Source of the DNA: Syntrophaceae bacterium CG2_30_58_14
Lineage (GTDB): Bacteria; Desulfobacterota; Syntrophia; Syntrophales; UBA5619
Assembly (NCBI GenBank): GCA_001873745.1
Contig: MNZQ01000116.1
Span: forward strand, 308-64,307
Reading direction: 5' to 3'
Length of the DNA: 64,000 nt
Shown here: positions 46,200 to 60,600 of the stretch, one piece after another
Numbering within the stretch: position 1 is the stretch's first letter
Layout of the letters: each line of letters begins with the position of its first letter
Program-made: the position numbers and the translations under genes
Notes under the pieces: model-generated
Databases searched by the model: none
What the model saw: the letters and a program-made list of their open reading frames with translations, nothing else
What the model was told of the DNA's origin: nothing

Positions 46200-46320
46200 T
46201 CCGTACTGTTTTCGCGCTATCCGTCGCCTCTCCCGCCCTTCCAACCGGAGCTGCCGTCTTTGTAGAAACGCCATCCCGCCTCGTCTTATCAATAACCGGT
46301 TGTTATCTATTATATGATTA

Positions 46321-46346
46321 TTATTCGTTTGACTTATTCGTTTGAC
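46321..46346 (+). repeat. 13-nt exact tandem direct repeat TTATTCGTTTGAC x2 (plus a partial third, TTATATTAC) upstream of phnW
   Basis: Read directly in the AT-rich 246-nt spacer between rimO and phnW. Confidence 0.85.
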
Positions 46347-46396
46347 TTATATTACGGAAGGTATAGATAGGATTCCATGATCACTATGGGAATGAT

Positions 46397-46418
46397 TTCA
46401 TTGGATCTTTCCAATGAA
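46397..46418 (+). promoter_or_regulatory. Inverted repeat TTCATTGG-N6-CCAATGAA in the phnW 5' region (operator or RNA hairpin)
   Basis: Perfect 8-bp arms, 27 nt upstream of the phnW ATG. Confidence 0.4.
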
Positions 46419-46444
46419 TCCATTGATAAGACAAGGAGGTTGAT

Positions 46445-47563
46445 ATGGAGATAAAAAATTTGCCGGACAATCCCTATCTGTTGCTGACGCCGGGCCCTCT
46501 ATCGACAACCAAGACCGTGAAGGCCGCGATGCTCCGGGACTGGTGCACCTGGGATGACGATTACAAAACGATCGTCCAGGAGGTGCGGGACAAGCTGGTA
46601 CAACTCGCGACGAACAAGACGGACCGATACACCTCTGTCCTCATGCAGGGCAGCGGCACCTTTTCGGTGGAAGCGACCATCAGCACGGCCGTTCCCGAAA
46701 ACGGCAAGCTGCTGGTCCTTCCCAACGGCGCCTACGGGGACCGGATCGTGCAGATCGCAAAGACCCTGAAGATACCGGTGGTCGAAAACGACAGCGGGGA
46801 ACTGGATCCGCCCGATCTGGAAAAGTTAGAGACAACGCTGAAGGCGGACCGCGCGATCACCCATGTCGCCGTCGTTCATTCCGAAACGACCACCGGCATG
46901 CTGAACCCCATCGCCGAGATCGGGAAGATCGTGAAGAGACACGGCAAGATCTTCATCGTGGATGCGATGAGCAGCTTCGGCGGCATCCCGATGGACATCG
47001 AGGCGCTCGACATCGACTTCATCGTCAGCAGCGCGAACAAGTGCATCCAGGGGGTCCCCGGGTTCGGTTTCATCATCGCCGACCGGAAGCGGCTGATGAC
47101 CTGCAAGGGCCGGGCGCGCTCGCTCTCCCTGGATCTCTACGATCAGTGGAACACGATGGAAAACGACAAGGGGAAGTGGCGCTACACCTCGCCGACCCAC
47201 GTCGTCCGGGCCTTTGATCAGGCGCTGAAGGAACTGGACGAGGAAGGCGGCGTCGCGAAGCGGGCGGAGCGTTACCGGGCCAACCACCGGACCCTGGTGG
47301 ACGGCATGCGAGGGCTCGGCTTCCGCACCCTCCTCCCGGACGCCTTCCAGGGACACTTCATCACCTCCTTCTACAGTCCGGAAAGCGAGCAGTATGACTT
47401 CCGAACGTTCTACAACAAACTGAAGACCCGGGGATTCGTGATCTATCCGGGCAAGGTTTCCAAGGCCAGCGCATTTAGAATCGGCAACATCGGCGACGTT
47501 TACCCGACCGACATGGAGAGGCTGGTCAAAACTATTGCAGCATCGATGTTCTGGCAAGGGTAA
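46445..47563 (+). CDS. phnW: 2-aminoethylphosphonate:pyruvate aminotransferase
   Basis: [29 protein letters not shown]...[13 protein letters not shown]...[15 protein letters not shown]...RYTSPTHVV closely tracks enterobacterial PhnW along its whole length (from memory). Confidence 0.88.
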
Positions 47564-47617
47564 AACGGTTATCAAAAAAATTTCTGAACAGATCCTGTCA
47601 CATTACGGGAGGATGAG

Positions 47618-48730
47618 ATGATTGCGGGAATTTTGAAAGAGATCAAGATTGAGGAAAACCGCGTCTCCATGACGCCGGCCGGCGTCGAGATCCTGAAGGG
47701 GCATGGCCACACGCTCCTCGTTGAAAAGGGCGCGGGTTCGGGCAGCGGTTTCGAGGACAGGGCCTACGTCGCCGCCGGCGCCGAGATCGTCAAGACCGCA
47801 AAGGAGATCTACGGCCGTTCCGACATGGTCATGCATGTGAAAGAACCGATGCCTTCCGAGTACGAATGGATCCGCAAGAATCAGATCGTCTTCACCTATT
47901 TCCATCTGGCCGCGAATGAGGCGCTGACGAGGGCGATGATCGAAACCCAATCCATCGCTATCGCCTACGAGACGATCCAGAAGGCGGACGGATCGCTCCC
48001 CCTGCTCATCCCGATGAGCGAGGTCGCGGGCCGGATGGCAATCCAGGAGGCCGCCAAGTACCTCGAGATGGAATACGGCGGGGAGGGCGTTCTTCTCGGC
48101 GGCGTCCCGGGCGTCGAACCGGCGACGGTCCTGGTGATCGGCGCCGGAACCGTCGGCACGCACGCCGCAAAGATGGCCTGCGGCCTGGGCGCCAGGGTCT
48201 ATGTCATCGACTCCTGTTTGTCGCGACTCCGCTATCTCTCCGACGTCATGCCGAAGAACTGCTTCCTCCTGATCTCCTCTCCGGAGACCATCCGCAGGCT
48301 GATCCGGGAGGCGGACGCGGTGATCGGCTCCGTCCTGATCCCCGGCGCCAAGGCGCCGAAACTCGTCACGCGCGACATGCTGAAACTCATGAAAAAAGGA
48401 TCGGTCCTGGTGGACGTGGCTATCGACCAAGGCGGCTGTTTTGAAACCTCCAGGGCGACGACGCACAAAGCGCCGATCTACACGATCGACGGGATCATCC
48501 ATTACTGTGTGGCAAACATGCCAGGCGCCGTCGCGAAAACCTCCACGCTGGCCCTGACGAACGCCACCCTCCCCTATGCGGTCGAGATCGCAAACAAGGG
48601 CTGGAAGAGGGCAATGAAGGAAAACCCGGAGATCAAAAAGGGCGCCAATGTGATCCAGGGTCAGGTCACCTTCCAGGGCGTGGCCGACGCCTTCGGTCTG
48701 AAATTCGCCGATATCGAAAAGTTTCTGTAG
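47618..48730 (+). CDS. ald: Alanine dehydrogenase
   Basis: MIAGILKEIKIEENRVSMTPAGVEILKGHGHTLLVEKGAGSGSGF...VIGAGTVGTHAA (NAD fold). Confidence 0.93.
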   Translation: MIAGILKEIKIEENRVSMTPAGVEILKGHGHTLLVEKGAGSGSGFEDRAYVAAGAEIVKTAKEIYGRSDMVMHVKEPMPSEYEWIRKNQIVFTYFHLAANEALTRAMIETQSIAIAYETIQKADGSLPLLIPMSEVAGRMAIQEAAKYLEMEYGGEGVLLGGVPGVEPATVLVIGAGTVGTHAAKMACGLGARVYVIDSCLSRLRYLSDVMPKNCFLLISSPETIRRLIREADAVIGSVLIPGAKAPKLVTRDMLKLMKKGSVLVDVAIDQGGCFETSRATTHKAPIYTIDGIIHYCVANMPGAVAKTSTLALTNATLPYAVEIANKGWKRAMKENPEIKKGANVIQGQVTFQGVADAFGLKFADIEKFL

Positions 48731-48752
48731 TTTCAATCAGATGAAACCCTGC

Positions 48753-48792
48753 GGACCGGTTCCGGGACTCTTGGGGAACCGGTCCTTTTTTT
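48753..48792 (+). terminator. Rho-independent terminator after ald
   Basis: GGACCGGTTCC-N11-GGAACCGGTCC perfect 11-bp stem, followed by TTTTTTT. Confidence 0.88.
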
Positions 48793-48807
48793 GGAACAAA
48801 AATCCCG

Positions 48808-49773
48808 TCACAATCCATAAACCCTTTTGAGATGCTCCCTGATCTGTTGCAGGTGCTTTTGCTGCTCCCGATACAGACGGTGTGCGTCCTCCAGGGTCAC
48901 CCGTTCGAACAGAACGATATTCCCGGGCATGGCCTGGGCCACGTTGGGGAGATCCGCTGTAATCACGGTCGCGATTTTTGCGTACCCCCCCGAGGTCTGC
49001 TCGACGAGGAGAATGATGGGCTGCCCGTCGGCGGGGACCTGAACGTTTCCGGGCATCGTGGGCTCCGTCACGATACTCTCGGGTGATTCCCCATCGCGAT
49101 GGACGGCGGGGCCCCGGAGCCGGCAGCCCATTCGGTCGGCCTGCTGGGTCACTTCATAGGAGGCGCCGAAAAAGGCGTCGATGCCTTCCCGGAAGGCGTC
49201 GTCCTGTGGACCGGGGACGGCCCTGAGCGCGATCTCTCGTGCATATCGTGGAATCCATTCGTCGGGGAGCTCACGGGGGCGAGTCAGGAGACTGCCCGCT
49301 CTCCGGTGCAGGATGTCGCCTTTGATCAATCCGCGTCCCTGAACACCGCCGATTTTCGCCCGCACGAAGGTGGAGCGGCTCCCCATCATCAGGGGAACAT
49401 CGATGCCTCCCGTGACGGCCAGGTAGGCCCGGCAGCCGGATGCCGCCCGGGGAATCCGGATGACTTCGCCGGGGTTCGCTCTAACCGTCCGCCATGCCCG
49501 GATGGGGGCCTGGTTGATGGTCATCCCCATGTCGGCGCCGGTCAATGCGATGTCGGCCGGTGTGAGAACCTCGATGGTGGGACCCATCACGGTGATCTCC
49601 AGGACGGCGGCATCTTCGGGATTTCCCACGAGCAGATTCGCAACCCGGCAGGCAAAGGGATCGAGGGCCCCGGAGAGGGGAACGCCCCGGTCCAGGAAGG
49701 CCAGACGCCCGAGATCCTGTACGGTGGTCATGGGACCGGGGTTCCGGACGGCGAAGAGTTCCATCAGGACCAC
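48808..49773 (-). CDS. pxpC: 5-oxoprolinase subunit C (PxpC; KipA / allophanate hydrolase subunit-2 family)
   Basis: 321 aa; GPMTTVQDLGRLAFLDRGVPLSGALD...GGYAKIATV; overlaps pxpB by 10 nt. Confidence 0.85.
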   Translation of the reverse strand: MVLMELFAVRNPGPMTTVQDLGRLAFLDRGVPLSGALDPFACRVANLLVGNPEDAAVLEITVMGPTIEVLTPADIALTGADMGMTINQAPIRAWRTVRANPGEVIRIPRAASGCRAYLAVTGGIDVPLMMGSRSTFVRAKIGGVQGRGLIKGDILHRRAGSLLTRPRELPDEWIPRYAREIALRAVPGPQDDAFREGIDAFFGASYEVTQQADRMGCRLRGPAVHRDGESPESIVTEPTMPGNVQVPADGQPIILLVEQTSGGYAKIATVITADLPNVAQAMPGNIVLFERVTLEDAHRLYREQQKHLQQIREHLKRVYGL

Positions 49774-50471
49774 TCCTTTTCGCGCAATCGACGGAATTCG
49801 GCCTCGGCGATGGGTACGAACCGGATACGGTCTCCCGCCTCGTACAGAAAGGGGTTTTCCCGCGCGGGGGCGAAGAGTCGCAGCGGCGTCCGCCCGATGA
49901 TCTGCCAGCCGCCGGGACTGTCGACGGGATACATGCCCGTCTGGGATTCCGCGACTCCCACGGAGCCCGCCGGGAGGTTCGTCCGCGGCGTTTTTCTGCG
50001 CGGCATCTGCAACCGGCGATCCAGTCCGCCCAGGTAGCAGAATCCCGGCGTGAAGCCGATCATGTAGATGGGATAATCAACGGCGATATGGATGACGACG
50101 ATCTCATCCTCCCGCAGGCCGGTGTGTTCCGCCACGACGCCGATGTCGGGACCGAACTCGCCGCCGTAGCAGACCGGGATCGGAACGACTTTCGCCTTTG
50201 CAATCTCCGCCGCACGGGAATCCGCTTCCAGGGCATGGAGGATCTCCGCCAGCCTTCCGGGTGTCGTCGCCAGGGGATCATAGATAATGGAGAGGGAGCG
50301 GTAGGCCGGGACAACCGCCTCGACGCCGGCCGGAAGGTTTCTCTTCAGGAGCGTCGTCATGGCCCGCACCTTTTCGTTGATGACGGGGTCGATTCCGTCG
50401 CCGTATTCCACCAGGAGCGCGCGGTCGCCGCTCAACCGGAATCGGGCCTGTTTGTAAAGTATCGCTGCCAT
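49764..50471 (-). CDS. pxpB: 5-oxoprolinase subunit B (PxpB; KipI / allophanate hydrolase subunit-1 family)
   Basis: 235 aa; GDRALLVEYGDGIDPVINEKV...YMIGFTPGFCYLGGLD...GGWQIIGRTP. Confidence 0.85.
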   Translation of the reverse strand: MAAILYKQARFRLSGDRALLVEYGDGIDPVINEKVRAMTTLLKRNLPAGVEAVVPAYRSLSIIYDPLATTPGRLAEILHALEADSRAAEIAKAKVVPIPVCYGGEFGPDIGVVAEHTGLREDEIVVIHIAVDYPIYMIGFTPGFCYLGGLDRRLQMPRRKTPRTNLPAGSVGVAESQTGMYPVDSPGGWQIIGRTPLRLFAPARENPFLYEAGDRIRFVPIAEAEFRRLREKEWS

Positions 50472-50501
50472 GGCTTGGGAAATACCGTTATGGAGGGGAT
50501 G

Positions 50502-51278
50502 TCAAGCCGATGCGCCCAGCGGGACGATGCGAAACCCCTCGGCCTCCAGCGCCTGCCGGATCGTCCTCACATGGTCAACGGCCGACGGATTGTCGCCGTG
50601 CACGCAGAGCGTATGCACCTCCATCTCCAGGCGCGTGCCGTCCGTGGCGATCACCCTGCCCTCTTTGGCCATCCGGAGTGCCTGCTCGGCGGCCCGCTTC
50701 GGGTCCGTGATCACGGCCCCGGGAAGTTTCCGTGGCGCCAGCTTTCCATCGGGCGTATAGGTCCGGTCGGGGAAGGCTTCGAAGACGACACGGATCCCCG
50801 CCGCGTCGGCGATCTTCTGCGCAAGGCCGGCCTGAGCCCCGCCGAGCGTCACCCAGAGGAGTCCCGGATCGACGGCAGCAATGGCCTCGGCCACGGCCCT
50901 GGACAAGGGCTCATTTCCCACGCACATGTTGTACAGGCTGCCGTGGGGCTTCACATGCTGCAGCTTCACGCCGTGGAGGGCGCAGAAGCCGCGCAGGGCC
51001 GCGATCTGGTAGATCACATCATCGCGCACCTCGTCCGGAGTGCAGTCCATGTTCCGCCGCCCGAATCCCGCGAGGTCGGGGTATCCCGGATGGGCCCCAA
51101 CGCCTACGCCGTTTTCTTTGGCAAGCTTCACCGTCCGGTTCATGACCCGGGGATCGCCGGCGTGGAACCCGCAGGCGATGTTGGCCGAGCTGATGTACCG
51201 GATCACCTCGCCGTCCATGCCGATCGTGTAGGCGCCGAAGCCCTCCCCCATGTCGCAGTTGATGTCGATCCTATTCAT
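50502..51278 (-). CDS. pxpA: 5-oxoprolinase subunit A (PxpA; LamB/YcsF family)
   Basis: MNRIDINCDMGEGFGAYTIGMD...SSANIACGFHAGDP...VKPHGSLYN, from ATG 51278-51276. Confidence 0.88.
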   Translation of the reverse strand: MNRIDINCDMGEGFGAYTIGMDGEVIRYISSANIACGFHAGDPRVMNRTVKLAKENGVGVGAHPGYPDLAGFGRRNMDCTPDEVRDDVIYQIAALRGFCALHGVKLQHVKPHGSLYNMCVGNEPLSRAVAEAIAAVDPGLLWVTLGGAQAGLAQKIADAAGIRVVFEAFPDRTYTPDGKLAPRKLPGAVITDPKRAAEQALRMAKEGRVIATDGTRLEMEVHTLCVHGDNPSAVDHVRTIRQALEAEGFRIVPLGASA

Positions 51279-51521
51279 CGGTTCATCTCCTCGTACGGTA
51301 TGTCGAATCATTATGCCATTATTTAGCGATCATCCTGCTCGGAAGGAATCACTGGGCGCTGGAGAGAGAGGAATCAGCCTGGCCCAACTTTTCCTGAAAG
51401 CCTTTTCGTTTCCCTGAGGTTCGAGGAGGAGCGCAGCGTATGAGTGAAAGCGAGATTTCTTGTAAAATAAGTTTGGGCAACAGGCCCCTGACCCTTGATT
51501 TTTGAACCCTTTCCTTGAATG

Positions 51522-52226
51522 TTAAAGTCCCAGGAAGGCCTTTTTGATGTCTTCTGCATTGAGGAGTTCTTTGCCTGTCCCTTCCTGGATTGTCCTGCCC
51601 GTCTGAAGAACATATCCGCGGTCGCATATGTCAAGGGATTCAAAGACATTCTGTTCCACAAGGAGTATAGTTTTCCCGATTGTCCTCAGCTTTGCAACGG
51701 CTTCGAACATTTCATCTACCAGTTTCGGCATGAGCCCCAGAGAAGGTTCGTCAAGCATGAGAAGTTTCGGGTTTGACATGAGACCCCTCCCGATGGCAAG
51801 CATCTGCTGCTCGCCGCCGCTTAAGGTGCCACTCAACTGTGAGCGTCTCTCTTTCAACCGTGGAAAGAGGCTGTATATGAAATCGAGATTTTTCTTTGTT
51901 TCTTCGGAATTATTTAAAATGTATGCACCAAGCTCAAGATTTTCTTCCACCGTGAGAGGCCCGAATATGAGACGCGCTTCAGGGATATAGGTAATGCCAA
52001 GCTTGACAATGTCCGGTGTTGACAGTTTGTGTATATCTTTGCCATCGAACTGTATTGACCCTTTTGTCGGATGAAGGGCCCCTGCGATGGTTTTGAGGAG
52101 AGTCGATTTCCCGGCGCCGTTTGAACCTACCACCGTAACAAGCTCACCCTGCCCGACGTGGAGTGAAACGTTGTGGACAACAGGTATGCCGCTGTAGCGG
52201 ACTTCGATCTCAGTGACTCTTAGCAT
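51522..52226 (-). CDS. livF: Branched-chain-amino-acid-type ABC transporter ATP-binding protein (LivF-like)
   Basis: GSNGAGKSTLLKTIAG, LSGGEQQMLAIGRGL; 234 aa. Confidence 0.88.
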   Translation of the reverse strand: MLRVTEIEVRYSGIPVVHNVSLHVGQGELVTVVGSNGAGKSTLLKTIAGALHPTKGSIQFDGKDIHKLSTPDIVKLGITYIPEARLIFGPLTVEENLELGAYILNNSEETKKNLDFIYSLFPRLKERRSQLSGTLSGGEQQMLAIGRGLMSNPKLLMLDEPSLGLMPKLVDEMFEAVAKLRTIGKTILLVEQNVFESLDICDRGYVLQTGRTIQEGTGKELLNAEDIKKAFLGL

Positions 52227-52941
52227 ATTTCTCTCCCAGGTATGCCTTGATCACATCTTCGTTTTTGACAATTTCACCGGGCAGACCCTCCGCAATCTTT
52301 TCGCCATAATCAAGTACAATGACACGATGGGAAACAGACATAACCATCTCCATAATATGCTCGATAAGAATGAGTGTTACCCCTTTTTCGGCGTTGAGTC
52401 TCCTCAGAAGCAATACCAGTTCATCCGTCTCCGTGCGGTTTAAGCCTGATGCGACTTCGTCAAGCATAAGCAATTCAGGTTTTGTCGCCAATGTCCTGGC
52501 AAGCCCTACCTTTCTCTGCATTGCAATGGGTAATTCATTCAGATGATATTCTTTTACGCTTTCCAGTCCAAGAAAGTTGAGCACCTCAGAGGCCTCTGAC
52601 TGTGCCGTATGACGGTCATCGGTCCTGCAGAATGCACCTACCATGACATTTTCGATGACGCTCATGCCAGTTGTTACCGTCATAACCTGAAATGTCCTGC
52701 CGATACCCGCCCTGTTCGTGTCAAAGGGTCTCAATCCCGTTATGTCCTTTTCTTTAAAAATCACCTTTCCTGAATCGGGTTTATAATAACCGACAATGCA
52801 GTTGAAGAGGGTTGTTTTCCCGGCGCCATTGGGGCCGATAAGACCAATGATCTCACCCTGTTCGATCTGGAACGAGACGTTGTTGTTTGCCACAAGTCCG
52901 CCAAAATTTTTTACGATGTTCGATATTTCAAGAAATGCCAC
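52210..52941 (-). CDS. livG: Branched-chain-amino-acid-type ABC transporter ATP-binding protein (LivG-like)
   Basis: KNFGGLVANNNVSF, GPNGAGKTTLFNCI; 243 aa. Confidence 0.88.
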   Translation of the reverse strand: MAFLEISNIVKNFGGLVANNNVSFQIEQGEIIGLIGPNGAGKTTLFNCIVGYYKPDSGKVIFKEKDITGLRPFDTNRAGIGRTFQVMTVTTGMSVIENVMVGAFCRTDDRHTAQSEASEVLNFLGLESVKEYHLNELPIAMQRKVGLARTLATKPELLMLDEVASGLNRTETDELVLLLRRLNAEKGVTLILIEHIMEMVMSVSHRVIVLDYGEKIAEGLPGEIVKNEDVIKAYLGEKYAKSH

Positions 52942-52943
52942 AA

Positions 52944-53942
52944 TCAGCTCCCTTTTCTTCTGAACTGTTCGATGATGCCCCAGATACCCCTCGGTTGATA
53001 GGCAGAGACCACCATGATAAGCATTGCATAGATCATGAAATCAAGGCCGATCAACCCTCCATGGCCGCCAAGCCAGCTTCCGAGGAAACGGTCAAGGGGA
53101 ACGAGAAAGGCAGCGCCAATAGTAGGCCCCCAGAGGGAACCTGCCCCTCCGAGCATTGCCATGAGGGCAATTTTAATAGAAAGGTCTAAGTCCATGACAG
53201 AAACAGGGTCTATGTAGAGGTTGTAAACGGCCATAAACCCACCGCCAACGGCAACAAAGGCTGAGGCAATGGAGTATGCCTTTATCTTGCACCAGCGTGT
53301 ATCTATGCCAAGGCTTTCAGCGGCATCCTCGTCATCTTTTATCATCCTTAACTGATAACCCAGTTTTGATCTGCGGAACCAGTTCATGTAGAAGATGGCC
53401 ACATAAAAAAGTACCATAATGAAGTAGTAGTAATATGTGTCGGATTTGAACTGCATGTAGAGAAAATCAGGATGGTCATGTATCGGAAGCTCTATCCCTT
53501 TGGCGGCGCCTACCAGTTTCCAGTTTGCAAAAATATCCTGCAACACGAGGGATGTAGCGATCGTGGCAATAGCAAAGTAATGCCCTTTAAGACGGAATAA
53601 GGGATAGCCGATCATGAAGGAATAACCAACGGCAAGCAGAATCCCCATGGGCATGGATACCCAGAACGGGATTTTCCACCACACCATGGTAAGGGCCACA
53701 GTATATGCGCCGATTCCCACATATTGGGCCTTGCCGAGCTCTACCTGTCCACCATATCCGCCTACGGTATTCCATCCCATTCCAAAGAGGGAGAACAGGA
53801 GGAATTGAATCATGACCGCCTTTACGAATGACCCCGCACCAAGCCAGGGAAAGAGGAGCAGAAAGATGGAAAAGATGGTAAAACCGACCTGCTCGGCCCT
53901 CGAAAAGTCTCTGAAATCTAAGGCGTCCTTTAGTTTTTCCAT
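52944..53942 (-). CDS. livM: ABC transporter permease (LivM-like)
   Basis: 332-aa polytopic protein in the LivH/LivM family context. Confidence 0.85.
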   Translation of the reverse strand: MEKLKDALDFRDFSRAEQVGFTIFSIFLLLFPWLGAGSFVKAVMIQFLLFSLFGMGWNTVGGYGGQVELGKAQYVGIGAYTVALTMVWWKIPFWVSMPMGILLAVGYSFMIGYPLFRLKGHYFAIATIATSLVLQDIFANWKLVGAAKGIELPIHDHPDFLYMQFKSDTYYYYFIMVLFYVAIFYMNWFRRSKLGYQLRMIKDDEDAAESLGIDTRWCKIKAYSIASAFVAVGGGFMAVYNLYIDPVSVMDLDLSIKIALMAMLGGAGSLWGPTIGAAFLVPLDRFLGSWLGGHGGLIGLDFMIYAMLIMVVSAYQPRGIWGIIEQFRRKGS

Positions 53943-54817
53943 CCAAATAACCCCTGAGGTCTGAAAACGACAATGATAAAATAAGCAAGATAGACTATGG
54001 TAAATTTAAAATGAGGACCGAGGAAATCCGAGTTCACGAGAGAACCGAAGACGGGGAAAACCATTTCGAGAATGCCTACAAGTAAACCGGCGAAAAAGAC
54101 CCCTTTAATGCTCCCGAACCCGCCCAGAGCGACACAGGCAAAAGCGATCATGACAAAGAGAATACCTATCGTGGGGTAGATGTAATAGAAATTCGCCAGC
54201 AAACCCCCGGCAATACCAACTGTACCACCGCCTATAGCCCATGCAATGGCATTCATTTTGTCTGTCTTGATGCCCATATAAGAAGCGGCTTCTTTGTTTA
54301 TCGATGTTGCCTGGAGGGCCTTTCCTGTTTTTGTTTTATTGAGAAAATAGTATACGAATGCGAAGGCAAACAGACTGAGTATACCCGCAGCAAGTTTTGT
54401 CCAGTCAAAGATGAAGGGACCGATGGAGAGGGACTTTCCAATCAGGAGACCCTTCTGGATGATCCGATAATCTATTCCAAAGAGGAACTGTGCAAGGTAT
54501 CGAAGAAAGAGCATGAGACCGAAGGTCCCGAAGAGCTGAGCGATTGCAGGGCCACGGAGGAGATACCTGATCAGGCTGTAATAGGACGCTATGCCGAGCA
54601 GAACCCCTACAAGGGCAGCTACAGGCAGTGTAAGAAGGGGATCGATGTCAAGGAGGAGACTCGTCCAGTACGTGGTGTACATACCGATCATAAGGAATTC
54701 GCCATGGGCGAAGTTGACTATGTTCATAACGCCGAAAATAATGTTCAACCCAAGGGCAACAAGGGCAAAAAGAAGCCCCATCAGTATTCCCTGTAATAAT
54801 GCATCAATTAAAGCCAT
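53930..54817 (-). CDS. livH: ABC transporter permease (LivH-like)
   Basis: MALIDALLQGILMGLLFALVALGLNIIFGVMNIVNFAHGEF... Confidence 0.87.
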   Translation of the reverse strand: MALIDALLQGILMGLLFALVALGLNIIFGVMNIVNFAHGEFLMIGMYTTYWTSLLLDIDPLLTLPVAALVGVLLGIASYYSLIRYLLRGPAIAQLFGTFGLMLFLRYLAQFLFGIDYRIIQKGLLIGKSLSIGPFIFDWTKLAAGILSLFAFAFVYYFLNKTKTGKALQATSINKEAASYMGIKTDKMNAIAWAIGGGTVGIAGGLLANFYYIYPTIGILFVMIAFACVALGGFGSIKGVFFAGLLVGILEMVFPVFGSLVNSDFLGPHFKFTIVYLAYFIIVVFRPQGLFGWKN

Positions 54818-54842
54818 GGAGTATTGTTTCCTTAAAAAATGA

Positions 54843-54914
54843 TCAGTTATCAGCGGTCAGCAGTCAGCAACTTCCTAATGCTGAATGCTTGAATGCTGAC
54901 CGCTGAATGCTTAC
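54843..54914. repeat. Heptamer array forming a long hairpin: 4 x TCAGNNN, an 8-nt loop, then 5 inverted (N)NGCTGA-type units
   Basis: TCAGTTA TCAGCGG TCAGCAG TCAGCAA cttcctaa TGCTGAA TGCTTGAA TGCTGAC CGCTGAA TGCTTAC. TCAGCGGTCAGCA (54850-62) pairs perfectly with TGCTGACCGCTGA (54894-906). Confidence 0.85.
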
Positions 54915-54918
54915 AACG

Positions 54919-56220
54919 TTATTTCCATCCCGGGAATGGATAGATCATATTGGCAGTGGCAAGCTCAAAGGGGTAAATGATCTCGAGATCGATCATGCCT
55001 TCTTTGGTCTTCTGGTACTGCCCGATAAGACCTCTGCCGAGAATGTTCTGGCCGGTGGCATCGAATTTAACGCCTGCCCATGGCATAACCAGATCATTAG
55101 CGGGGATATTGATCTCATTGCATGCCTTCTGGATAGCCTTGGGGTCAGTTGAACCGGCTTTATTCAGAACGTATGCCCATGTCTGGACCCCTACGACTGA
55201 CCGGGCAGTGGCTCCTGTAAGGTCATCGCCATATTTTTTCTTATAAAGGGCATTGACCTGACCTGCAACCTTTTTTACCTTTGCAATCTTTGCGATAAAG
55301 ACTGTTCTCGTCAGAACACCGTTTGTGTCTGTGCCAAGTGTTTTAACAAAATCAGCCATTTCAAAGCCGGCATCCTGTCCCCAGAAAAAGTTCGTTGATG
55401 CCTTCATACCCTTCAAGGTTCTGATCATGAGGAGCGAGTCAGAGAGGTAAGATGCAAAAAGCATAACATCCGGTTTTACAGAAACAAGGGCCTTTGCTTC
55501 GGAGGTGAGGTCGGGCGAGTTTGCATTGTAGAGTATCCTTTTCGTTATATTGAAACCGTACTCTTTTGCAAATCCCTCTATTGATTTTGCTACACTTGAA
55601 CCCCATTCGGTATTTTCACAGGCATAGGCAACGTTCTTAAGCTGATCTTTAGGAAAGGCCTTAACACCCTTTACCTTTCCTTCTGTCAACCCCTTGAGAA
55701 GCTCAAAAAGGTCTTTGTTAAAAATATCATCATGGGGTGTTGTACGCCAGAACCATTTCAATCCTCTTTTTGTAAGTTCGGGTGATGTCGATGAATCATT
55801 GATCATGGGGATTCCATGGCGCTCGGCCACAGCACTGACGGTCTTTGTAACTGAGCTATGGTAGGCGCCCATTAACCCGACAACTTTGTCGTCAAGAATA
55901 AGTCTTTTTGCAAGGTCTGCTCCACGGTCAGGCTCGCCCCGATGGTCTGCAAAGATCAGTTTGATTTTAGCGCCACCTAAATTCGGTATCCCACCCCACT
56001 GTGCCATGGGTATATCAACGCCAGGAGTTTTATTATTGATAATCTCTGCGGTCAGCTCTGCTGCCCTCTGAAGGTCTCTCCCGATTGTAGCTGCTGCCCC
56101 TGAGAGCGGATAGAGAACACCGATCCTAATCTCTTTTTCCTGCGCAAAAAGCGGAGGAAAAAGAAAAAGAAGAGACAAGAACACAACGATGAAAAAAAGA
56201 ACTGTTTTCCGGTATTTCAT
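54919..56220 (-). CDS. ABC transporter substrate-binding protein (type-1 periplasmic binding fold, Leu/Ile/Val-binding family)
   Basis: MKYRKTVLFFIVVFLSLLFLFPPLFAQEKEIRIGVLYPLSGAAA... signal peptide. ATG at 56220 is preceded by AGGAGG; the ORF-track start at 56262 adds 14 aa. Confidence 0.85.
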   Translation of the reverse strand: MKYRKTVLFFIVVFLSLLFLFPPLFAQEKEIRIGVLYPLSGAAATIGRDLQRAAELTAEIINNKTPGVDIPMAQWGGIPNLGGAKIKLIFADHRGEPDRGADLAKRLILDDKVVGLMGAYHSSVTKTVSAVAERHGIPMINDSSTSPELTKRGLKWFWRTTPHDDIFNKDLFELLKGLTEGKVKGVKAFPKDQLKNVAYACENTEWGSSVAKSIEGFAKEYGFNITKRILYNANSPDLTSEAKALVSVKPDVMLFASYLSDSLLMIRTLKGMKASTNFFWGQDAGFEMADFVKTLGTDTNGVLTRTVFIAKIAKVKKVAGQVNALYKKKYGDDLTGATARSVVGVQTWAYVLNKAGSTDPKAIQKACNEINIPANDLVMPWAGVKFDATGQNILGRGLIGQYQKTKEGMIDLEIIYPFELATANMIYPFPGWK

Positions 56221-56624
56221 TGTACTACCTCCTGTAGTGTTTTGATCATATTTTCGCTTCATTGTTCCCTCCCGATTCTTGTATTATGATTTTCGATGCA
56301 TCCATACGTATCTCATGCCGAAATCATGGCTTTCCGCCTCTCTTTCCAACCACCCCCTTCCATAGATTACACGGCACTGCTCAAAGGAACATATAACGGC
56401 TCAGAATCCAGGATTCAAAATTCAGCAGAATGGTAACCCTGTAAATCACCAGCAACTTGCTGGCTTATTCCGACAAATGCGCCCTTATGCCATGCCCTCT
56501 AATCCCGAAAATCCTTAGCGGTCTTCCTATGAATCTCCATCCTGAATTCAAGCCCCTGGCTTCTGAGTGGCACAGCAATTTCATCCTTAAATCCCACGGG
56601 GCGCCCCGGGTTATTTAAAAAAAG

Positions 56625-57419
56625 TCAGGAAATGGCCATTTCTTCTATTTTTATATCTGTAATGAACATATGACAGGGTTTATGGGTAATCATGAACGGA
56701 ACCTTTGATTTCATTGCTGCCAGTTGCGGAGTAACACCGCAACCCCAAAAAACAGGCACATCCCCCCTGTCGATTACGGGAGGTTCGCCAAAGTCAACCT
56801 TTTCAAGATGCGTGATTCCGATTGGCTCCCCATTGCCAATATGGACGGGCGCGCCATGCGCTTTAGGAAATCTCGAGGTTATCTGAACCGTCCGTGCAAC
56901 AAGATGGCCAGGAATCGGTCTCATAGTGACTACCATGGGCCCCCAAAAAACCCCGGCTGACCGGCACATGACTGAACTGATATATACGCCTGGATCTTTT
57001 TGCTGGAGATAATTCTTTACGGGAACCCCTCCCCGAACCAGGGCTTCTTCAAAGGTATAACTGCAACCGATTAAATAAGTTACAAGATCGTCACGCCATA
57101 AATTGGTGATCTCTGTTCTTTCCTCGACCAGTTTTGAATCCTTGAAGATGCAATATTTCGGGATATCGGTGCGGATGTCCGCATCGGGAGCTGCTTCCTG
57201 TACAATAGGGTTTCCCGGATCAAGGATTTCAATGATCGGGCAAGGCTGGGGATTCCTCAAACAAAAGATGGTAAAATCGAGAGCGAATTCCCTCGGGAGG
57301 ATAACGAGATTGGCTTGGACATAGCCGGGACAGGCCCCACTGGTAGATTTTTGCCATTTGCCCTGTCTAATTTGATCGCGGAACTTCCCGGGATCTTGTT
57401 CTTGTCTTTCGTTACACAT
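56625..57419 (-). CDS. DUF1445 / UPF0317 putative hydro-lyase (D-glutamate cyclase family)
   Basis: 264 aa; FRDQIRQGKWQKSTSGACPGYVQANLVILPREFALDFTIFCLRNPQPCPII is the family signature as I recall it. Confidence 0.75.
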   Translation of the reverse strand: MCNERQEQDPGKFRDQIRQGKWQKSTSGACPGYVQANLVILPREFALDFTIFCLRNPQPCPIIEILDPGNPIVQEAAPDADIRTDIPKYCIFKDSKLVEERTEITNLWRDDLVTYLIGCSYTFEEALVRGGVPVKNYLQQKDPGVYISSVMCRSAGVFWGPMVVTMRPIPGHLVARTVQITSRFPKAHGAPVHIGNGEPIGITHLEKVDFGEPPVIDRGDVPVFWGCGVTPQLAAMKSKVPFMITHKPCHMFITDIKIEEMAIS

Positions 57420-57442
57420 AATAGCACCTTACCTGAATCCGT

Positions 57443-57458
57443 GGCATAAAATGTGCCT
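57443..57458 (-). promoter_or_regulatory. Candidate sigma-54 (-24/-12) promoter for the DUF1445-ABC unit
   Basis: Minus strand aGGCACattttaTGCc has GG and GC at the canonical spacing (consensus TGGCAC-N5-TTGC), about 24 nt upstream of the DUF1445 ATG. No enhancer-binding protein gene is present in the window. Confidence 0.3.
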
Positions 57459-57675
57459 AAAGCCTCGTAACTATTCAGCCCCTCCATTAATTTATAATTT
57501 ATTTACCTCTCACCCTCCCCCCTAAAAAAGTCAAGGGATTTTTTTAAATTTTACTGATTGAATCCACGGCTTTATTTTGCGCGGTCCGGTTTTCCTGTTT
57601 TTCAGCACCGCTTCTTGGACGACTTCGCAAAAAGTCGAGATCACCCCCCCGAGATTTCCTCCCCGATTTTTTCTC

Positions 57676-60600
57676 TTAAATCCTCCGGCAGCCGGGGCCG
57701 GTCAGGCTGCTTCGCCCCCCGGTCCCGGGGGTGACCTGGATCTGCGTGCCGATGCGCTCCTTGAGCGCCGGGACGTGCGAGATGACGCCGATCAGCTTGC
57801 CTTCCTGGTGCAGTCCCGCCAGCGTCGAAAGCGCCGTTTCGAGGGTCTCGTCGTCGAGGGTTCCGAACCCTTCATCGAGGAAGAGAGAATCCACGCGCAC
57901 ATTCCGGCTCGCCATCTGCGAGAGGCCGAGCGCCAGAGCCAGGCTGACGATGAAGCTTTCGCCGCCGGAGAGATTCTTCGTGGAACGGATCTCGCCCGCC
58001 TGATAGTTGTCGATGACGTTCAGTTCCAGCGGTTGCAACGGGTCGCGGATGAGCATGTAGCGGTCCGTCATCTTCTTTAGCTGGAGGTTGGCATGCACCG
58101 TCATCCTCTCGAAGGTCAGCCCCTGGGCAAAGTTCCGGAATTTCTTGCCGTCAGCGGAGCCAATGAGCAGATGCAGGTCGTCCCAACGGGCGCACTCCTT
58201 TTTCCGGGCGTCCAGGGTCCGGAGGCGATCCTGCTGCTTTTCCTTCAATTTCTCATTTTCACCCAGACTGTTTGTGATTCCGCCGATATCGACCCGGATC
58301 TGTCTTAAGCTTGAATCACAGGCGCCGATCGTTTCCCGAAGCGTCTCGACGGGCTGATCCGTCAAGCGTCTCTCCCGTTCGGCGGCCAGCGCCTCCGATC
58401 GGTCCCTCCGGCGGGCGTCCAGTTCCGTTTTCTCCTTGACCAGGGCCTTTTCCCGCGCCGCGAGACTCTCCCGCGCCTCTTCGGTCAGGCAGGCGGACCG
58501 ATAGCCGGCCTCGTCCTCGAACCCCGCCTTGATGATCCGCTCCGTTAGGTTCGCCTCCGCCTGCGCCAGTTCCCCCGCCCGCTTTCCCGTCTTTTCCTGC
58601 AACAGCGCGATTTTCTCCTTCAGGGCGCCGATCTCTTTTTCCATTCGCCCGTACTCTTCGCGCGCCTTTTCAAAAACCTTTCCCGCCCGCTCCACAGCCT
58701 CCGCCAGCCACTTTTCCTCCTGGTCGGCGTTCCTCTCCCCGAAGAGTTCCCGGCGGGAGGCGCTAAGGGATTGAACCTGCATGAGCAGGTCGTCGCGATC
58801 CTTGCGCCTTGCGGCGAGATCCCTTTCGAGGCTCGAAAGCAGCGCGTTGTCCTTGTCCAGCGCGGCCTTCAGATCGCCGATCCCCTTCTCCGCGGCGGTT
58901 TTTTCATCCTGCCTTGTCTGCCACGCCTCTCTGCGCCCGGTGAGCTCCCGCAACAGGGCGTCGATTCCGGTTACGGGAATCTGCGTGATCCCGAAGGGTT
59001 CCACTCCCTTGAGCGCAGCCGTGCGGGCCTTTCGAGCCTCCTCCCCCAGGATTTCCTGCTCCCGGATCAACCGTTCATACTCCCGACCGGCCGTCTCCCG
59101 TTGATGCCGCGCCTCCTGCAAGGCCTTGTCCGACTTCTCGGATCCCGTCCTCAACTTCTCCAGGGCCGTTTGCGCCGCCTTCTCTCTTTTGCTTTTCTCT
59201 TCCGCAACGGAAACAATGCCGGAAGTTTCGGCCATTTTCAACCGGACATCGGCAAGAGCCGCGCATATGGGGACAGATTTAAAATCTGTCCCCATATGCG
59301 CGATACCCAGCTTCAGCAGCGCTTCACCACACGCCTTTTCGTCCGCATCCCGTGCGGCCCTTTTCTCCCCCATCTCTTTTTCCGCATGCCCGATCTCCGC
59401 CGCTGTTTTAACCTGCTCGGTTTCCAGTCTTCCCAGCGTCTCGGAGGTCTTTTTGTATTCGGCCTTTCTCTTTTTTAGCCCCGCTTCCGCCCTGTTCAAT
59501 TCGGGGAGATTGCCCTTCGCGTAAGGATGATCGGTGGCGCCGCACAGGGGGCACGGCCTGCCGTCCTCCAGCCGCTTCCGTTCCTCCTCGAGGTCGCGGA
59601 TCCGTCCAAGGAGAGCGACCTCCGTTTCGAGGGTTCCGATTCCCTTTTCCAGGACCGCTTTTTGCCCCGAGCAGGACTGGATCTCACCCGAGATCTTCTG
59701 ATGACCGTTATGGAAGGCTTCAAGGACCGTTTTCAGGCCTTCCAGCGCCCGACCCGTCTTGTCGATCCGGTCGATCATTTCGCCCGCTTGAATCAGAAGA
59801 CGCTCGCGCTCCTTCAGCGCATCCACCCGATCGCGCCACCGGCCGATGTCAGATCCTTTGAGGATGGCCGCGAGCTCAACGGTTAGACGCCGAAGTTCCG
59901 TCTGCCCCTTCTCGAATTCCCGGCGGGATTTCTCATGGTCGGTTTCGAGCTTGCCGCAGGTTAAACCGGCCGACGCCTTTTTCCCGTCTGCCGCGGCAAC
60001 CGCTTTCTTCGCCTTGATCTGCTTCGCCTCAGAGTCGCGAAGCGACTCGAATTCCCTTGCGATTACGGCGAGGTTGGTCAAAAGCGCGGCATCGGCGGCG
60101 TGTCCAGCCAGGTAGTCCCGGATCGCTTTTAGGTCGCCCTGCGCCTTTTTCAGCGCCCGTTCGAGATGTTCGATGTTGCTTTTAAATCCCCTCCCCTGCC
60201 GCTCGCCATCCCCGATCGCCTTGACCTTCTCTGCGACCTGTTTTTTCTGCTCCCCCAGCCTGGCATCGAGCTCGCGCACCTTCTTGAGGAGCTCCGCTTC
60301 GACGACCTGCCGGGAGCGCGCCTCGGTCAAACCGGCTTCCGCGGCCTGTTTCCGATTCAGCGCAGCGGCGCATGCCTTCTCCTTTTCGGGCCGTGTGGCG
60401 GCGGCGCCGGCGAGCTCCCCGGTTTCACTCCCCTGCTGAATCCGCAGCGCGGCCACCCCCCGGTAATCGCCTTCCAGACCGAGGGCCTTGCGGGATTTCG
60501 CCAATCGGATCGATTCCGGCGCAAAGGCAAGCCTGCGCTCCTCGAAATCCAGCAGCAGCCCGTCCAGTTCCGTGATCTCCCTCTCCAGGGCGGCCACCCG

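Follow-up and report, generated by a model that had tools for sequence, protein, structure and literature searches.

Why does a gene of the YcsI/DUF1445 family lie with an amino-acid-type ATP-binding cassette (ABC) importer next to the 5-oxoprolinase genes pxpABC in the genome of Syntrophaceae bacterium CG2_30_58_14? The genes in question occupy positions 48808-57419 of a 64,000-nucleotide stretch of contig MNZQ01000116.1, hereafter called the window. An earlier note on this DNA had proposed that they form a functional module in which an amino acid is imported, cyclized by the DUF1445 protein, and reopened by PxpABC, with the caveat that the adjacency may be accidental. In this report, genomes are designated by G codes (the genome that carries the window is G000 and is 96.7% complete), fetched loci by L codes, and metatranscriptome runs by X codes.

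We consider it likely that the locus serves the uptake and use of 5-oxoproline (pyroglutamate), and that YcsI is an optional accessory enzyme acting at the glutamate/5-oxoproline node. According to this scheme, the solute-binding protein (SBP) of the importer would bind 5-oxoproline in the periplasm, two permeases and two ATPases would import the compound, and the resident PxpABC enzyme would open the lactam to L-glutamate at the expense of ATP. Following the published model for this enzyme, PxpB and PxpC would phosphorylate 5-oxoproline, and PxpA would then open the ring and dephosphorylate the product. YcsI would be needed neither for the import of 5-oxo-L-proline nor for the opening of its ring.

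Gene Content and Composition of the Locus

The locus comprises nine open reading frames, all intact and all on the minus strand, in the order described previously: ycsI/DUF1445, the SBP gene, two permease genes, two ATPase genes, pxpA, pxpB, and pxpC. The last three are predicted to encode a 5-oxoprolinase, given that adjacent genes for LamB/YcsF, CT_C_D, and CT_A_B domains are the combination by which PxpABC is recognized. Specifically, pxpA (50502-51278) matches LamB_YcsF (E = 3e-101) and NF003814 (358.8 bits, cutoff 226), pxpB (49764-50471) matches CT_C_D (E = 3e-74) and TIGR00370 (200.6 bits, cutoff 145.55), and pxpC (48808-49773) matches CT_A_B (E = 3e-88) and TIGR00724 (293 bits, cutoff 230). 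The PxpC equivalog model NF045499 gives 231 bits, which is under its cutoff of 500. We place the start of pxpA at the ATG at 51278, which is preceded by GGAG and agrees with the start in sister species; the listed open reading frame began at 51311.

Base composition sets the importer side of the locus apart from the 5-oxoprolinase genes. The six genes from ycsI through the second ATPase gene have guanine-plus-cytosine (GC) contents of 0.46-0.49 and GC contents at third codon positions (GC3) of 0.46-0.57. The corresponding values for pxpABC and for the sbcC-like gene upstream are 0.62-0.66 and 0.75-0.85. The DUF1445 and ABC genes therefore constitute an island of 47% GC flanked by genes of 62-66% GC, which bears out the foreign composition that the earlier note had ascribed to this part. 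The window as a whole has a GC content of 0.569, lower than in the resident genes that surround the locus (~0.62-0.66), and probably holds more low-GC stretches elsewhere.

The same layout is present in G011, a second species of the genus, at ~93% nucleotide identity. Moreover, 14 groundwater or aquifer DNA runs contain 94-99% of the sampled words, and 8 of these runs are not flagged as a possible source of the DNA. Because of these two observations, the junctions between the island and its surroundings are not an assembly artifact.

The Importer and Its Ligand

The SBP (447 amino acids; 54919-56262) is a Peripla_BP_6 protein (E = 1.2e-39) with a hydrophobic, signal-like N terminus. Its top match among the sequences of the Protein Data Bank (PDB) is 8WCH (E = 4.5e-83, 283 bits, full length), and the runner-up scores 53 bits. 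This entry shows L-pyroglutamate (Kd < 5 nM) in complex with the ‘Ca. Pelagibacter ubique’ receptor SAR11_0655, whose gene resides in a 9.2-kb cluster with pxpABC homologs and whose transporter entered the literature in 2024 as a new ABC class (PMC11485210). The two receptors are ~37% identical (149 of ~405 alignment columns in a manual count). Among 11 SBPs of this clade, which come from several phyla, 61 columns are invariant, and 55 of the 61 are identical in 8WCH, again by hand count. The SBP thus appears to fall in the SAR11_0655 subfamily of L-pyroglutamate receptors. Because of this membership, the substrate that the importer carries is most likely the lactam 5-oxoproline itself.

Receptors of the SAR11_0655 type are linked to pxpABC in the window and in loci L122-L124, L015, L048, L056, L060, and L071. 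Syntrophorhabdaceae-type SBPs are 91-95% identical to the window SBP. In the operons of L122-L124, which hold SBPs of 91-94% identity, the gene order is DctP-pxpA-pxpB-pxpC-SBP-permease-permease-ATPase-ATPase, and in L123 the pxpC and SBP genes overlap. These operons also have a lone DctP gene, of the TRAP (tripartite ATP-independent periplasmic) family of transporters, 5′ of pxpABC and a full ABC importer 3′ of it, such that each operon encodes receptors of two transporter families.

The remaining importer genes encode a LivH/UrtB-like permease (53930-54817; BPD_transp_2, E = 5e-39; every NCBIfam equivalog under its cutoff), a LivM/UrtC-like permease (52944-53942; BPD_transp_2, E = 2.5e-35), a LivG-like ATPase (52210-52941; ABC_tran and BCA_ABC_TP_C), and a LivF-like ATPase (51522-52226; ABC_tran, E = 1.3e-32), the last of which is the end gene of the acquired cassette. 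The LIV-I branched-chain amino-acid system belongs to the same superfamily (HAAT, Liv/Urt) and was considered as a candidate. It was rejected on the basis of the NCBIfam LIV-I equivalogs, for which every score falls far under the cutoff: 60 bits for LivJ (cutoff 477), 79.5 for LivH (379), 97 for LivM (366), 223 for LivG (362), and 261 for LivF (441).

Origin of the Importer Genes

How did a foreign importer come to precede the 5-oxoprolinase genes? The pxpA gene is 86-96% identical among species of the genus and 75-78% identical within the family, and by this measure is a resident gene passed on by vertical inheritance. In the sister species G002, G010, and G012, pxpA is immediately preceded on its strand by the genes of a TRAP transporter (dctP-dctQ-dctM), and the gap between dctM and pxpA is 39-40 nt in two of them. 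The best matches of the sister-species DctP protein are 2PFZ (E = 9e-47) and 2PFY (E = 2e-44), which are titled just ‘putative exported protein’ and which we take to be DctP6 and DctP7 of Bordetella pertussis. The structures of DctP6 and DctP7 were solved with 5-oxoproline bound (PMC13274462).

A trace of this TRAP operon persists in the window. A 30-nt minus-strand segment at 51319-51348 corresponds to the final nine codons of dctM (FLPSRMIAK) and its stop codon. This remnant aligns to the dctM termini of G010, G002, and G004, is also present in G011, and coincides with the point at which BLAST homology to the sister species stops (51346-51348). An ortholog of the sister-species DctP was looked for in G000 and was not found. 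Because the sister species carry TRAP genes upstream of pxpA, a dctM remnant is left here, and DctP has no ortholog in G000, a pyroglutamate-type TRAP importer was replaced by a pyroglutamate-type ABC importer in front of resident pxpABC.

The interval between livF and pxpA (51279-51521, coordinates on which our analysis and the earlier note agree) is the junction of the island. Reading along the minus strand, the livF stop codon at 51522 is followed by 94 nt, a 57-nt piece of a transposase gene of the IS91 family (Y2; 51427-51371), 22 nt, the dctM remnant (51348-51319), and 40 nt that lead to the pxpA ATG. A second copy of the IS91 fragment (G000:C22:6311-6367; L121) is 95% identical and lies within an open reading frame at one end of a contig 6.5 kb long. 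The reading frame beside this copy matches PF04986 (Y2_Tnp) with an E value of 1e-4, which is above the cutoff. Independent DNA runs have 7-10x the local depth at the fragment, together with unitig breaks. Because of this excess depth in independent metagenomes, we conclude that the IS91-family element is multicopy and collapsed in the assembly. G011 is without the fragment. A repeat search of 51150-57800 yielded short, chance-level matches and neither direct nor inverted repeats at the flanks by which an integration site could be recognized.

The island itself is a mosaic. Positions 51522-56151 are 77% identical in nucleotide sequence, and 83-90% identical in protein sequence, to L071, a donor-type locus with the order pxpABC-SBP-HMGF-DUF1445, and nucleotide homology with this locus stops exactly at 51522. 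The DUF1445 gene alone (56612-57423) is 79-80% identical to the Syntrophales loci L008 and L011, and its nearest genomic relative, a Syntrophales metagenome-assembled genome, stands at 78-80%. The nearest relatives of the ABC cassette are in Syntrophorhabdaceae pxpABC-ABC operons, and those of the DUF1445 gene are in Syntrophales. Another species of the genus, G005, carries a second, independent cassette in the same order (L007) that is just 46-62% identical. The ancestral locus in the genus was TRAP dctPQM-pxpABC, and in the common ancestor with G011, low-GC DNA from Thermodesulfobacteriota-type donors replaced nearly the whole TRAP operon.

Recurrence of DUF1445 with pxp Genes

The linkage of DUF1445 to pxp genes, for which the earlier note had proposed a neighborhood survey, proves to be recurrent. 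We examined 80 DUF1445 loci from other genomes, taken from contigs of one genome per species and annotated with profiles from the window proteins. The pxp genes lie within 10 kb of DUF1445 in 36 of the 80 loci, nearly always on the same strand, and in 25 of the 47 loci that have at least 5 kb on both flanks. These 36 loci span Bacillota, Chloroflexota, Thermodesulfobacteriota, Methylomirabilota, Rokuibacteriota, Pseudomonadota, and Synergistota. Genomes of 3-5 Mb typically have one pxpABC locus of 2.5 kb, and on this basis we put the probability that pxpABC would fall by chance within 10 kb of any one gene at <1%. The triple combination of DUF1445, a SAR11_0655-type ABC importer, and pxpABC was found in at least five gene orders (the window, L015, L009, L048, L071, L056, and L060).

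Other partners also recur. Nramp-family permeases are the most frequent additional same-strand neighbors in pxp-linked loci (18 of 78 neighbors). They are of the YcsG/PxpT type, which is genetically required for 5-oxoproline use in Bacillus subtilis and Corynebacterium glutamicum. In L061, a gene for a HyuA-type hydantoinase/oxoprolinase adjoins DUF1445 in place of pxp genes. The link between DUF1445 and pxp genes is itself already known from B. subtilis, where ycsI resides within the operon ycsF(pxpA)-ycsG-ycsI-kipI(pxpB)-kipA(pxpC) (PMC10448178).

Could the adjacency in the window nonetheless be an accident of horizontal transfer, with an island that serves unrelated amino-acid or amide uptake? 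The foreign composition and the IS91-family fragment at the junction would fit such an origin, as would the 243-nt spacer before pxpA, for which no bridging transcript was seen. However, the three-part combination exists in several phyla with varied gene orders, the donor-type cassette is itself joined to pxpABC, and the island took the exact position of another transporter and left a remnant of it in place. In addition, the pxpABC genes of sister species with 39-40-nt gaps probably rely on the promoter of the transporter. We judge an accident to be very improbable, and on the evidence of gene neighborhoods the adjacency of DUF1445, ABC, and pxpABC genes here appears not to be accidental. The caveat raised previously can therefore be set aside in view of the cross-phylum recurrence, the donor cassettes with pxpABC, and the transporter swap at the same position. 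The proposal of a functional module gains support from the recurrence of DUF1445-pxpABC and DUF1445-ABC-pxpABC in permuted orders across phyla, and from the sister species, which likewise have a transporter upstream of pxpA.

The YcsI/DUF1445 Protein

The window YcsI protein (264 amino acids; 56625-57419), also named UPF0317 and ‘putative hydro-lyase,’ matches PF07286 (D-Glu_cyclase/DUF1445, E = 1.3e-56) and is a full-length member of its family, as NF003969 (‘putative hydro-lyase’) aligns to residues 4-262 with 365.6 bits (cutoff 324). In a quick maximum-likelihood tree, it falls in a small, well-supported clade with Syntrophales-type proteins, and pxp linkage is scattered over the tree. The DUF1445 open reading frames of L006 (8230-10368; G040:C6) and L014 (9386-10783) run ~200-450 amino acids upstream of the domain without a Pfam match, and a DUF4392 gene comes after the one in G040. 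These extensions may be start-codon artifacts, because each open reading frame was begun at its first in-frame start codon.

Solved relatives are limited to 3DB9 and 2PIF, both of which are structural-genomics entries. The predicted model of the window protein superimposes on them with TM scores of 0.81-0.91, and a Foldseek search of the PDB with this model returned these two structures plus a weak match to the NrpR-like protein MJ0159 (TM 0.44-0.51), which provides no mechanistic lead. An alignment of 85 homologs has 52 columns that are at least 95% conserved, including R167 and N56, and C60, C119, C227, H188, and H246 are invariant.

We also considered whether YcsI might be non-metabolic, serving as a ligand-binding or regulatory partner or as an extra subunit of the 5-oxoprolinase system. 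The sole fold match outside the family is to a nitrogen-repressor-type protein, albeit weakly, and our literature search retrieved no paper that characterizes a bacterial DUF1445 member or reports an activity for one. However, the 52 highly conserved columns, with three cysteines and two histidines, are typical of an active or metal site, and YcsI is linked to partners that are not homologous to each other, namely PxpABC and the HyuA-type enzyme. The acquisition of ycsI apart from resident PxpABC is also an ill fit to an obligate, coevolved subunit. A role other than catalysis is thus improbable.

What reaction, then, might YcsI catalyze? Mouse D-glutamate cyclase converts D-glutamate into 5-oxo-D-proline and consists of a DUF1445 and a DUF4392 domain. 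The mouse paper assigns catalysis to neither domain, and the earlier description of DUF1445 as the catalytic domain of the mammalian enzyme is therefore not established. A separate DUF4392 gene stands beside DUF1445 in 17 of the 80 surveyed loci, mostly from Chloroflexota, and one of the 17 (L053) also has pxpABC. No DUF4392 (PF14336) gene was found in the window, G000, G011, or G005 with a protein query that detects the copy in G040 (E = 3.9e-80), where the gene adjoins DUF1445. The window locus consequently lacks the combination by which a D-glutamate cyclase is recognized, which is DUF1445 with DUF4392/GLUCM-like_C, either fused or adjacent. No alignment column separates pxp-linked from DUF4392-linked DUF1445 proteins, and for this reason their chemistry is probably the same in both settings.

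DUF1445 was not found in the sister species with TRAP-pxpABC loci and is missing from the donor-type loci L122-L124. Because it is absent from both, it is dispensable for the basic pathway.

These findings bear directly on the chemistry proposed at the outset, by which an open-chain amino acid, either D-glutamate or a substituted glutamate, enters through the ABC importer, is closed to a lactam by DUF1445, and is opened again by PxpABC. Such a route would be in keeping with the naming of PF07286 after the mammalian D-glutamate cyclase, with the formation of 5-oxo-D-proline from D-glutamate by the mouse enzyme, and with the linkage of DUF1445 to pxpABC in many genomes. However, the SBP belongs to a subfamily that binds L-pyroglutamate, importers of the same ABC type form pxpABC operons without DUF1445, and the receptor of the preceding TRAP transporter best matches 2PFZ and 2PFY, which we take to be the B. 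pertussis pyroglutamate receptors. Furthermore, cyclization followed by reopening would be a futile loop that wastes ATP, judging from the known energetics of 5-oxoprolinase, unless a stereocenter or substituent changes in between. Finally, the DUF4392 domain of the mammalian enzyme was not found in G000, whereas the same query was positive in G040. Given the receptor subfamily, the donor operons and sister species that lack DUF1445, and the cost in ATP, we regard this chemistry as unlikely.

It is possible, if doubtful, that YcsI instead works alone and without ATP on the ‘wrong’ enantiomer, either as a 5-oxoproline racemase or as a reversible D-glutamate/5-oxo-D-proline hydro-lyase. A stereochemical side branch of this kind would account for the occurrence of YcsI in loci whose importers, and likewise whose ring-opening enzymes, are unrelated; in our sample these include Nramp and ABC importers and PxpABC and HyuA-type enzymes. 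If this speculation is correct, then the repeated addition of YcsI to pyroglutamate loci would make racemic environmental pyroglutamate usable. It would also give a defined function to a widespread family that includes one domain of a human mitochondrial enzyme.

Points against a 5-Oxoproline Locus and Transcription across the Spacers

Three observations weigh against our assignment of the locus to 5-oxoproline uptake and use. First, the SBP, at ~37% identity to SAR11_0655, misses the 40% threshold above which the SAR11 authors presume that ABC SBPs have the same function (PMC11485210). Second, the closest relatives of the window DUF1445 protein (L008, L011, and L009) stand beside a different, UrtA-like ABC type, and therefore the DUF1445 substrate need not be 5-oxoproline itself. 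Third, the 243-nt livF-pxpA spacer carries the insertion sequence fragment, and co-transcription of the island with pxpABC is presumed.

The larger, conserved clusters of L008, L009, and L011 have, along with this second, UrtA-like ABC importer, genes for a GntR/FCD regulator, a Glu/Leu/Phe/Val dehydrogenase, a 2-oxoacid:ferredoxin oxidoreductase, and a 552-amino-acid Creatinase_N-like protein. A divergent set of genes encodes DUF2848, Cupin_7, CN_hydrolase, and a PreA-like DHO_dh/Fer4 protein. These clusters may represent an uncharacterized catabolic island.

With regard to the third observation, a consensus scan of 51279-51521 called no terminator and gave one promoter-like match of 9 of 12 positions (51525-51498), a result that is uninformative either way. 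When folded as RNA, the spacer has no stability beyond that of its shuffled versions (z = +1.33). Metatranscriptome contigs from peat (X15), with 95-99% identity, lie over the island genes, and contigs from lake water (X16) lie over the 5′ end of pxpA. None of the contigs from these two runs bridges livF and pxpA. They derive from related organisms with different flanks, and contigs cannot prove transcription. In sister species with gaps of 39-40 nt between dctM and pxpA, pxpABC probably depends on the promoter of the transporter.

At the other end of the island, ycsI is separated from the SBP gene by a 362-nt spacer (56263-56624, minus strand). This spacer opens, directly past the DUF1445 stop codon, with a GC-rich palindrome (56587-56618) that the consensus scan did not call as a terminator and that has no Rfam match. 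The palindrome may act in regulation or as a weak terminator, and DUF1445 may be a transcription unit apart from the importer genes.

Neighboring Features

Downstream of pxpC (46242-48789) are genes for a class-V aminotransferase (46445-47563), which has a lower GC content, and an alanine dehydrogenase (47618-48730). Both genes are absent in G011, and the aminotransferase gene alone is absent in G002 and G004. A search of 48000-58500 against Rfam with permissive E values revealed no credible RNA element.

Comparison with Known Systems

Pyroglutamate arises spontaneously from glutamate and glutamine, and its recognition as a bacterial nutrient is recent. The system most like the window locus in its importer is the SAR11_0655 cluster, with which it shares an SBP of the same Peripla_BP_6 subfamily, a Liv-type set of permeases and ATPases, and clustered pxpABC genes. 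The two differ in that the SBPs are ~37% identical, the importer here was horizontally acquired upstream of resident pxpABC, and a YcsI/DUF1445 gene is attached to the window locus. The window locus is an instance, from groundwater bacteria, of this newly described type of ABC importer for pyroglutamate.

The B. subtilis ycsF-ycsG-ycsI-kipI-kipA operon and the C. glutamicum pxpR-pxpTABC system likewise combine PxpABC with a dedicated 5-oxoproline importer, and the former has a YcsI/DUF1445 gene within the operon. Their importer, however, is an Nramp-family secondary carrier (YcsG/PxpT) rather than an ABC transporter, and the window locus is without a regulator gene of the PxpR, KipR, or GntR kind. 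The TRAP type represented by B. pertussis DctP6 and DctP7 is carried by the sister species as dctPQM-pxpABC. In G000 the TRAP genes are gone, and the window retains the last 30 nt of dctM. The substitution of an ABC for a TRAP importer before the same 5-oxoprolinase genes would constitute independent genomic support for the ligand assignments of both importers.

Mammalian DGLUCY (C14orf159/9030617O03Rik; EC 4.2.1.48) shares the DUF1445 domain with the window protein, but is a fusion of DUF1445 and DUF4392, and no DUF4392 was found in this genome. The locus is a clean additional case of YcsI/DUF1445 in the company of 5-oxoproline genes, in which the gene was acquired separately from the other parts. 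This separate acquisition narrows the search for the function of a family that supplies one domain of human D-glutamate cyclase. Overall, the locus is a further case of a known class, consisting of an importer and PxpABC with or without YcsI, whose replacement history is unusually legible.

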